In this document: positions 26,110 to 26,305 of the stretch, piece by piece
How the letters are laid out: each line of letters starts with the position of its first letter
Position numbering within the stretch: position 1 is the first letter of the stretch
Assembly: GCF_003334405.1 (NCBI RefSeq)
Contig: NZ_QOWM01000002.1
Source: Escherichia coli
GTDB taxonomy: Bacteria; Pseudomonadota; Gammaproteobacteria; Enterobacterales; Enterobacteriaceae
Reading direction: 5' to 3' (one strand)
Length of the DNA: 64,000 bases
Made by a program: the position numbers and the translations under genes
Notes under the pieces: generated by a model
Databases searched by the model: none
What the model was told of the DNA's origin: nothing
What the model saw: only the letters and a program-made list of their open reading frames with translations

Positions 26110-26305
26110 CAGATGCGATGCGCACGGGTAAAACGTGCCATTAATGTCGGATGCGGCGTGAACGCCTTATCCGACCTACGTTCGGCACCCGTAGGCCGGA
26201 TAAGATGCGCCAGCATCGCATCCGGCAATGCGCACAAGGTAACAAATGTGCCATTCATGTCAGATGCGGCGTGAACGCCTTATCTGACCTACGTTCGACA
26301 CCACC
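26110..26305. repeat. REP/BIME cluster containing a ~55-bp near-identical direct repeat
   Basis: gtgccattaatgtcggatgcggcgtgaacgccttatccgacctacgttcggcacc (~26134..26188) recurs as gtgccattcatgtcagatgcggcgtgaacgccttatctgacctacgttcgacacc (~26248..26302); inverted REP copies lie between. Confidence 0.85.

Follow-up and report, generated by a model that had tools for sequence, protein, structure and literature searches.

The speB-loiP intergenic region of Escherichia coli carries a BIME-2-type REP cluster whose 113-bp unit varies in copy number

The speB-loiP intergenic region

In the window analysed here, by which we mean the whole 64-kb stretch of E. coli DNA, the convergent genes speB and loiP (yggG) are separated by a gap of 205 bp, which is a base-for-base match to that of E. 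coli K-12 MG1655 (Table 1). The gap begins directly after the TAA stop codon of speB (26103-26105), and the genes around it are speA, speB, loiP, tktA and cmtB/A. A preliminary description of this DNA had placed a REP/BIME cluster downstream of speB, which is borne out by the Y, Z2 and Y elements of the gap. The RefSeq K-12 record carries no REP annotation there. A consensus scan of the gap found no sigma-70 promoter, and a scan of positions 25900-26500 for intrinsic terminator-like sites (G+C-rich hairpin followed by a T run) returned none on either strand.

Further upstream, the speA-speB interval is of the K-12 type in the window and only 137 bp long (25048-25184), whereas many E. coli strains have in this interval a 732-bp gene annotated as 'membrane protein/hypothetical' (locus L129, 2438-3449). 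A GC-rich hairpin followed by a T run lies in the same interval at about 25118-25158 and was missed by the simple terminator scan. On the minus strand, a 338-aa ORF (25242-26258), almost certainly spurious, lies antisense to the GC-rich speB gene and extends into the BIME.

Table 1. Features of the speB-loiP region and their positions in the window
Feature	Position	Strand	Basis or remark
speB (agmatinase)	25185-26105	+	Upstream convergent gene; ORF list and annotation of the identical K-12 sequence
Decayed inverted Z2 REP relic	26106-26124	-	Directly after the speB stop codon; comparison of alleles and species
Copy 1, full gapped extent (linker, Y REP and short linker)	26115-26189	+	Local alignment with 26225-26302
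Copy 1, 55-bp repeat	26135-26189	+	51/55 identical to 26248-26302
Y-type REP 1 (GTCGGATGCGGCGTGAACGCCTTATCCGACCTAC)	26146-26179	+	Imperfect palindrome, ends CTAC; core 27-34/34 against Y REPs elsewhere
Tail-to-tail linker Y1/Z2, 11 bp (GTTCGGCACCC)	26180-26190	.	Sequence; conserved in E. albertii and E1V33
Inverted Z2-type REP (GTAGGCCGGATAAGATGCGCCAGCATCGCATCCGGCA on the + strand; starts GTAG)	26191-26227	-	32/37 against known Z2 REPs
Head-to-head linker, 31 bp (ATGCGCACAAGGTAACAAATGTGCCATTCAT)	26228-26258	.	Specific to the speB-loiP locus
Copy 2, 55-bp repeat	26248-26302	+	51/55 identical to 26135-26189
Y-type REP 2 (GTCAGATGCGGCGTGAACGCCTTATCTGACCTAC)	26259-26292	+	Compensatory G-C to A-T stem change relative to Y1
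Second tail-to-tail linker, shortened (GTTCGACACC), and 8 bp to the loiP stop codon	26293-26310	.	Sequence; alleles
loiP (yggG), metalloprotease	26311-27069	-	Downstream convergent gene; stop codon 26311-26313

Structure of the array

The K-12 array consists, in this order, of a decayed Z2 relic, a Y REP, an 11-bp linker, an inverted Z2 REP, a 31-bp linker and a second Y REP. The repeating unit is 113 bp long and is made up of the Y REP, the 11-bp tail-to-tail linker, the inverted Z2 REP and the 31-bp head-to-head linker. K-12 holds ~1.5 such units (Y-Z2-Y) after the decayed relic of another Z2.

The near-identical direct repeat of ~55 bp that had been reported for this region is real, with 51 of 55 positions identical between its two copies, and the four variable positions are exactly those given at the time. 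The distance between the copies is 113 bp instead of the ~114 bp claimed, and what had been described as several inverted REP units between them is indeed inverted REP sequence, but only a single element, of the Z2 type. The 55-bp repeat is a Y REP together with the adjoining parts of both linkers, present twice. A repeat search returned one direct-repeat family in the region (26131-26196 and 26244-26309; 66 nt, 88% identity, 113 nt from start to start), and a gapped local alignment with three indel bases lengthened the repeat upstream, so that 26115-26189 was aligned with 26225-26302. No matches to the 55-mer occurred in dinucleotide-preserving shuffles of the window. Tandem Repeats Finder made no call for the K-12 allele, because the latter contains fewer than two full units.

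Compared with the Z2 REPs of REP325, caiB-caiA and pepA-holC, the Z element is identical at 32 of 37 positions; of the five differences, four make up two compensatory stem pairs. The caiB-caiA BIME also has a short linker, ATTCGTGCTCCC, that is related to GTTCGGCACCC. The foot tetranucleotide CTAC of the Y REPs is found at 26176-26179 and 26289-26292, and its columns (42-45) are invariant in 16/16 copies.

The Z2 relic reads GCACCAGATGCGATGCGCA in K-12 and is GCGCCGGATAAGATGCGCA-like in other Escherichia; in K-12 it pairs with 26213-26225 as a 13-nt inverted repeat. Among strains, the relic is GATGCGATGC in K-12, the B strains and strain UTME-7, and GATAAGATGC or GATAAGAGGC in other E. coli and other Escherichia. 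The 13-nt inverted repeat, which joins the relic to the far arm of the intact Z2, was created by the K-12 version, and the change looks like a hairpin-templated (quasipalindrome template-switch) event.

Beside loiP, the gap ends in ...CCGGCGTAATA(A/T)AA(T/C)GC in a 47-bp 'empty' allele (L003, 505-551), in E. whittamii and in SCPM-O-B-8794 (gap ends of L033 and L104), and in ...CACCACCAGGCT in K-12-type alleles. There are therefore two right-hand ends of the array, one after Z2 and the other after Y.

Relation to known repeat families

The classification of BIMEs is reportedly due to Gilson, Bachellier and Hofnung. Descriptions of BIME-2 units in tandem, conserved at a given locus and variable in number from strain to strain, go back to the 1990s. 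BIME-1 elements (RIP/RIB) combine, in single copy, a Y with a shorter Z1 and have a long L linker with an IHF site. The speB-loiP array differs from them in its 37-nt Z2 partner, its 11-bp tail-to-tail linker and its tandem repetition. The IHF consensus WATCAANNNNTTR was found on neither strand of the gap and, together with the Z2-length partner and the tandem copies, this rules out a BIME-1/RIP element. REPINs, reportedly described by Bertels and Rainey in 2011, are said to be REP doublets mobilised by RAYT. The Y/Z2 pair of the array, arranged tail to tail, is an inverted doublet of REPs such as has been proposed to move as a unit, but it is fixed at an orthologous Escherichia locus and amplified in tandem, and is not dispersed together with its linkers.

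BIME-2 elements are made of z2 and y in multiple tandem copies that are well conserved within a locus and vary in number among strains (Ton-Hoang et al. 2012, PMC3333891), and the linkers of BIME-2 and of atypical BIMEs differ in length and sequence (PMC3333891). The speB-loiP array shares with BIME-2 the alternating orientation of y and z2 (Y(+) Z2(-) Y(+) at 26146-26292), tandem reiteration, conservation within the locus, a strain-variable number, an extragenic position between convergent genes and the property of being a gyrase target. It differs from this class in nothing essential, although its head-to-head linker is locus-specific and long (31 bp, compared with 12 bp in REP325 and 11 bp in pepA-holC). 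The supplement of Sutormin et al. (PMC6379681) lists the array as 'BIMEs2, 146 bp, yggG>-<speB' and gives its gyrase cleavage sites as mapped by Topo-seq: 0 for Cfx, 2 for RifCfx (rifampicin and ciprofloxacin), 0 for Micro and 2 for Oxo (oxolinic acid). The speB-loiP array is thus an ordinary, already catalogued BIME-2; it is called 'BIME-2' and not 'atypical BIME' on account of its y and z2 REPs, its tandem structure and its entry in the published list. A literature search on speB, loiP and REP returned nothing specific, and the RepRanger supplements do not mention the locus.

The closest well-studied relative of the array is REP325/naRNA4 (Rfam RF02564; Qian et al. 2015, PMC4550694), which is also a tandem Y/Z2 BIME-2 array. 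Its REP cores are identical to those of speB-loiP at 31/34 (Y) and 32/37 (Z2) positions. It differs in having six units with a 100-bp period and linkers of 12 and 17 bp, and in its location between yjdM and yjdN.

Hairpins and RNA folding

The predicted DNA hairpins of Y1, Y2 and Z2 (26191-26227) had folding energies of -9.7 kcal/mol (z -4.1), -8.5 kcal/mol (z -4.4) and -12.9 kcal/mol (z -5.2), respectively. When the whole gap was folded as RNA, both strands folded far better than shuffles (z -4.4 and -4.7). Among the 16 local copies of Y, 98.4% of the stem cells are paired, and stem pair 15-38 is GC in nine sequences, AU in six and unpaired in one. Nissle carries the A/C intermediate of this compensatory pair.

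The strong folding of both strands would be compatible with transcription of the Y-Z2 pairs as a naRNA4-like nucleoid-associated RNA acting with HU, as for REP325. With the Rfam naRNA4 model, the best match was obtained on the minus strand at 26194-26289 (53.5 bits, E 4.6e-08), and in the study of REP325 any RNA with two REP-type hairpins, even in antisense, condensed DNA with HU in vitro (PMC4550694). The score falls short of the gathering threshold (59.5), however; REP cores common to both arrays account for the match, and both the linkers and the period (113 versus 100 bp) are unlike those of REP325. We therefore regard this role as quite unlikely for the speB-loiP array.

Copy number among E. 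coli strains

A comparison of strains had been suggested as a check for copy-number variation, and such variation was found across 5,426 E. coli genomes, in which the array contains from 0 to 5 Y units. The gap is 47 bp long in an allele with no Y and one degenerate Z2, 90 bp with 1 Y, 203-205 bp with 2 Y, 316 bp with 3 Y and 429 bp with 4 Y; an additional allele of 142 bp corresponds to the K-12 type minus 63 bp, with the loss of Y1. The multi-copy alleles are separated throughout by steps of exactly 113 bp, and Tandem Repeats Finder called 3.5 copies of a 113-bp unit with 95% matches in the 4-Y allele.

Allele frequencies were estimated from evenly spaced samples of ranked match lists (40, 60 and 30 rows) and from place counts, the 60 rows being taken from a flank-only search. 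According to these estimates, 2 Y are present in ~62-64% of the 5,426 complete genomes, 4 Y in ~10%, 0 or 1 Y in ~11%, and 3 or 5 Y in a few. The presence of 5 Y corresponds to the up to 4 head-to-head linkers per genome found in the linker census. In 797 of the 5,426 genomes (14.7%), the array between speB and loiP is replaced by a ~7.6-kb D-glucosaminate-type operon containing dagR, four mannose-family PTS genes, dgaE and dagF.

An example of this operon lies at 4371-12000 of locus L129, and it is also found at L007, L008, L017 and L092. Escherichia sp. MOD1-EC7003 has the same D-glucosaminate-type operon in place of the BIME. The 55-bp junction of the operon beside loiP contains a REP-tail-like palindrome, CCGACCTACAATTATGTTGTAGATCGG.

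Within the 3-Y and 4-Y alleles, the inner copies do not differ from one another (100% identity in the 4-Y allele), which indicates that these amplifications are recent and that amplification continues. The amplified unit is of the distal type in E. albertii and of the proximal type in E. coli B2 strains, and the expansions are therefore independent. In the 1-Y allele, sequence of the proximal type on the 5' side passes into sequence of the distal type on the 3' side. This chimera has its crossover within the shared core, as expected if one unit had been lost.

The identical 30-bp Y cores may allow units to be gained and lost, either through unequal homologous recombination between them or through replication slippage. 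In addition or instead, a REP-associated tyrosine transposase might act by cleavage and strand transfer at CC|TAC, a site that both Y copies contain. In vitro, TnpA-REP cuts at CC|T and recombines BIMEs, and this has been proposed as an amplification mechanism; cleavage and strand transfer were demonstrated in vitro for other BIMEs (PMC3333891). Recombination or slippage and transposase action are both compatible with the data, and we infer that copy number at speB-loiP changes through one or both of them.

Age of the two-copy state

The two 55-bp copies had been taken as the sign of a recent local duplication, that is, of one Y-REP segment duplicated in the K-12 lineage shortly before the present. 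The copies differ at just 4 of 55 positions, and the identical inner copies of the 3-Y and 4-Y alleles do represent recent amplification at this locus in other strains. We compared 111 orthologous Enterobacteriaceae loci retrieved with a degenerate pattern for the 3' end of speB, a set in which E. fergusonii and Shigella are absent. Among these loci, E. coli-type arrays downstream of speB were found only in Escherichia. Arrays of at least two copies with the same 113-bp period are present in E. albertii (3 Y in a 323-bp gap), E. whittamii (2 Y and 2 Z2, 246 bp) and Escherichia sp. E1V33 (2 Y, 205 bp), and a divergent 'E. coli' representative has 1 Y and 1 Z2 in 131 bp. The first three differ from K-12 at 16-27% of the third codon positions of the flanking genes.

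The differences between the copies are position-specific and common to these species, with CATTCATGTCAGAT...ATCTGAC in the distal copy and ATTAATGTCGGAT...ATCCGAC in the proximal copy. Three characters separate K-12 Y2 from Y1, namely C at position 9 (linker), A at 15 and T at 38 (stem pair), and all of them recur in E. albertii Y2 and Y3 and in the distal copies found in E1V33 and in the B2 strains of E. coli. Orthologous copies are consequently closer to each other than paralogous ones: K-12 Y2 is identical to E. albertii Y2 and Y3 at 54/55 and 53/55 positions, compared with 51/55 to K-12 Y1, and K-12 Y1 is identical at 54/55 positions to E1V33 Y1 and to E. whittamii Y2. The shared arrays and the position-specific variants thus place the two-copy state before the split of these species, E. 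coli and E. albertii included. The word 'recent' is not supported by these data, and a duplication confined to the recent history of K-12 is very unlikely.

The intergenic regions of K-12 and E. albertii are 94.6% identical, compared with 84% (speB) and 73.5% (loiP) at third codon positions. This higher identity of the gap points to constraint or homogenisation.

In Salmonella (L058, Salmonella enterica subsp. diarizonae), the speB-loiP gap contains a single inverted Y-like REP, and in Citrobacter (L120, Citrobacter portucalensis) it contains a two-REP BIME with a 15-bp linker. REPs have therefore colonised the gap independently and more than once.

Local paralogy and REPs elsewhere

The two Y copies could in principle have been inserted independently, as mobile Y REPs or as REPIN-like REP doublets moved by the RAYT transposase, without any tandem duplication. 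REPs are thought to spread through TnpA-REP (PMC3333891), and the repeated colonisation of the gap outside Escherichia is in line with this possibility. The local copies were compared with ~20 Y REPs from four other sites of the window and from REP325, caiB-caiA, pepA-holC, thiQ-yabI and other loci, located with blastn-short and anchored regexes. The preliminary description would have been contradicted by copies no closer to each other than to REPs elsewhere; the local copies are identical at 51/55 positions, compared with 34-45/55 for the non-local REPs, for which nearly all identities fall inside the 34-nt core (27-34/34). The flanks of the local copies agree at 10/11 and 9/10 positions, while those of the non-local Y REPs agree at a near-random level (5' flank 3-7/11, 3' flank 1-6/10). 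Local paralogy of the copies, as opposed to two unrelated REPs, is thus supported.

The Y REP core occurs in at least 38 places per genome, for example in the caiB-caiA, pepA-holC and thiQ-yabI gaps, and six Y-core matches were found in the 64-kb window, compared with 0 expected. By contrast, genomes with the 31-bp linker have it at a single locus (4030/5426 genomes and 5160 places; median 1 and maximum 4 per genome). In E. coli genomes without the array, the best genome-wide match to the 113-bp unit covers positions 5-101 only, at 82-85% identity; it represents the module of Y, short linker and Z2 found in other BIMEs and leaves the 31-bp linker uncovered. Because flanks and linkers match locally and the 31-bp linker is limited to one locus, the copies are true local paralogues. 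The similarity between them runs past the REP into linkers unique to the locus, the alleles differ by exact multiples of 113 bp, and a donor locus with the same linkers was not found in the 5,426 genomes, all of which makes two independent insertions highly improbable.

Five further Y-type REP cores of the window are located at 7243-7297, 10526-10580, 14973-15027, 21047-21066 and 38936-38990. Four of the five are on the minus strand, and their flanks are unrelated to the speB-loiP unit.

Resemblance to CRISPR arrays

The preliminary description had also warned that a repeat finder could miscall the region as a CRISPR-like array. As in CRISPR arrays, the repeats are intergenic, partly palindromic and regularly spaced (55-bp repeats with 58-bp intervening segments). 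A CRISPR-like or other spacer-acquiring repeat system can nevertheless be practically dismissed, since there are only two repeats and a single 'spacer' in K-12, the three segments of 58 bp between the repeats of the 4-Y allele are 96.6-100% identical and are themselves conserved REPs, the flanking genes are speA, speB, loiP and tktA with no leader or cas genes, and the repeat core is the REP dispersed over the whole genome. Standard CRISPR callers need at least three repeats and dissimilar spacers, and a literature search for REPs as CRISPR false positives returned nothing specific. The risk of a miscall is therefore small, and the warning carries little weight.

Interpretation and possible functions

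Taken together, we interpret the speB-loiP array, with a probability of about 0.9, as a BIME-2-type REP cluster with a 113-bp locus-specific unit, whose two-Y state predates the split of E. coli and E. albertii and whose copy number has repeatedly gone up and down by 113 bp.

At the RNA level, the REP hairpins might form at the 3' ends of both convergent mRNAs, speB and loiP, and act there as terminators or stabilisers or as attenuators. Such a role is suggested by the lack of a canonical terminator in the gap and, for speB-loiP, we infer it by analogy with the general biology of REPs. At the DNA level, the array would act as a target of DNA gyrase, as mapped experimentally at the yggG>-<speB BIME.

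One may further speculate that the array is a selected, tunable module beyond a generic REP cluster. Lying between the convergent transcripts of speB and loiP, it might for instance serve as a gyrase-dependent topological insulator or stabilise their 3' ends, its 0-5 copies setting local expression or supercoiling, or it might be a recombination hotspot that admitted the D-glucosaminate operon. This proposal is prompted by the identity of the locus-specific linkers and REP variants between E. coli and E. albertii (~95%, compared with 74-84% at synonymous sites of the flanking genes), by the compensatory changes in the stems and by the gyrase cleavage inside the array, but we consider it unlikely.

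As a discovery the array has little weight, since its listing as a BIME-2, gyrase cleavage sites included, has already been published, and the outcome is a clean negative in that the repeat is neither a recent duplication nor CRISPR-like nor a new element. As by-products of the analysis, the allelic series of 0-5 Y in 113-bp steps illustrates the way in which arrays of this kind expand and contract, and the two-copy state appears to date back at least to the time when E. coli and E. albertii diverged. The 31-bp locus-specific linker could serve as a simple marker of copy number or for typing.
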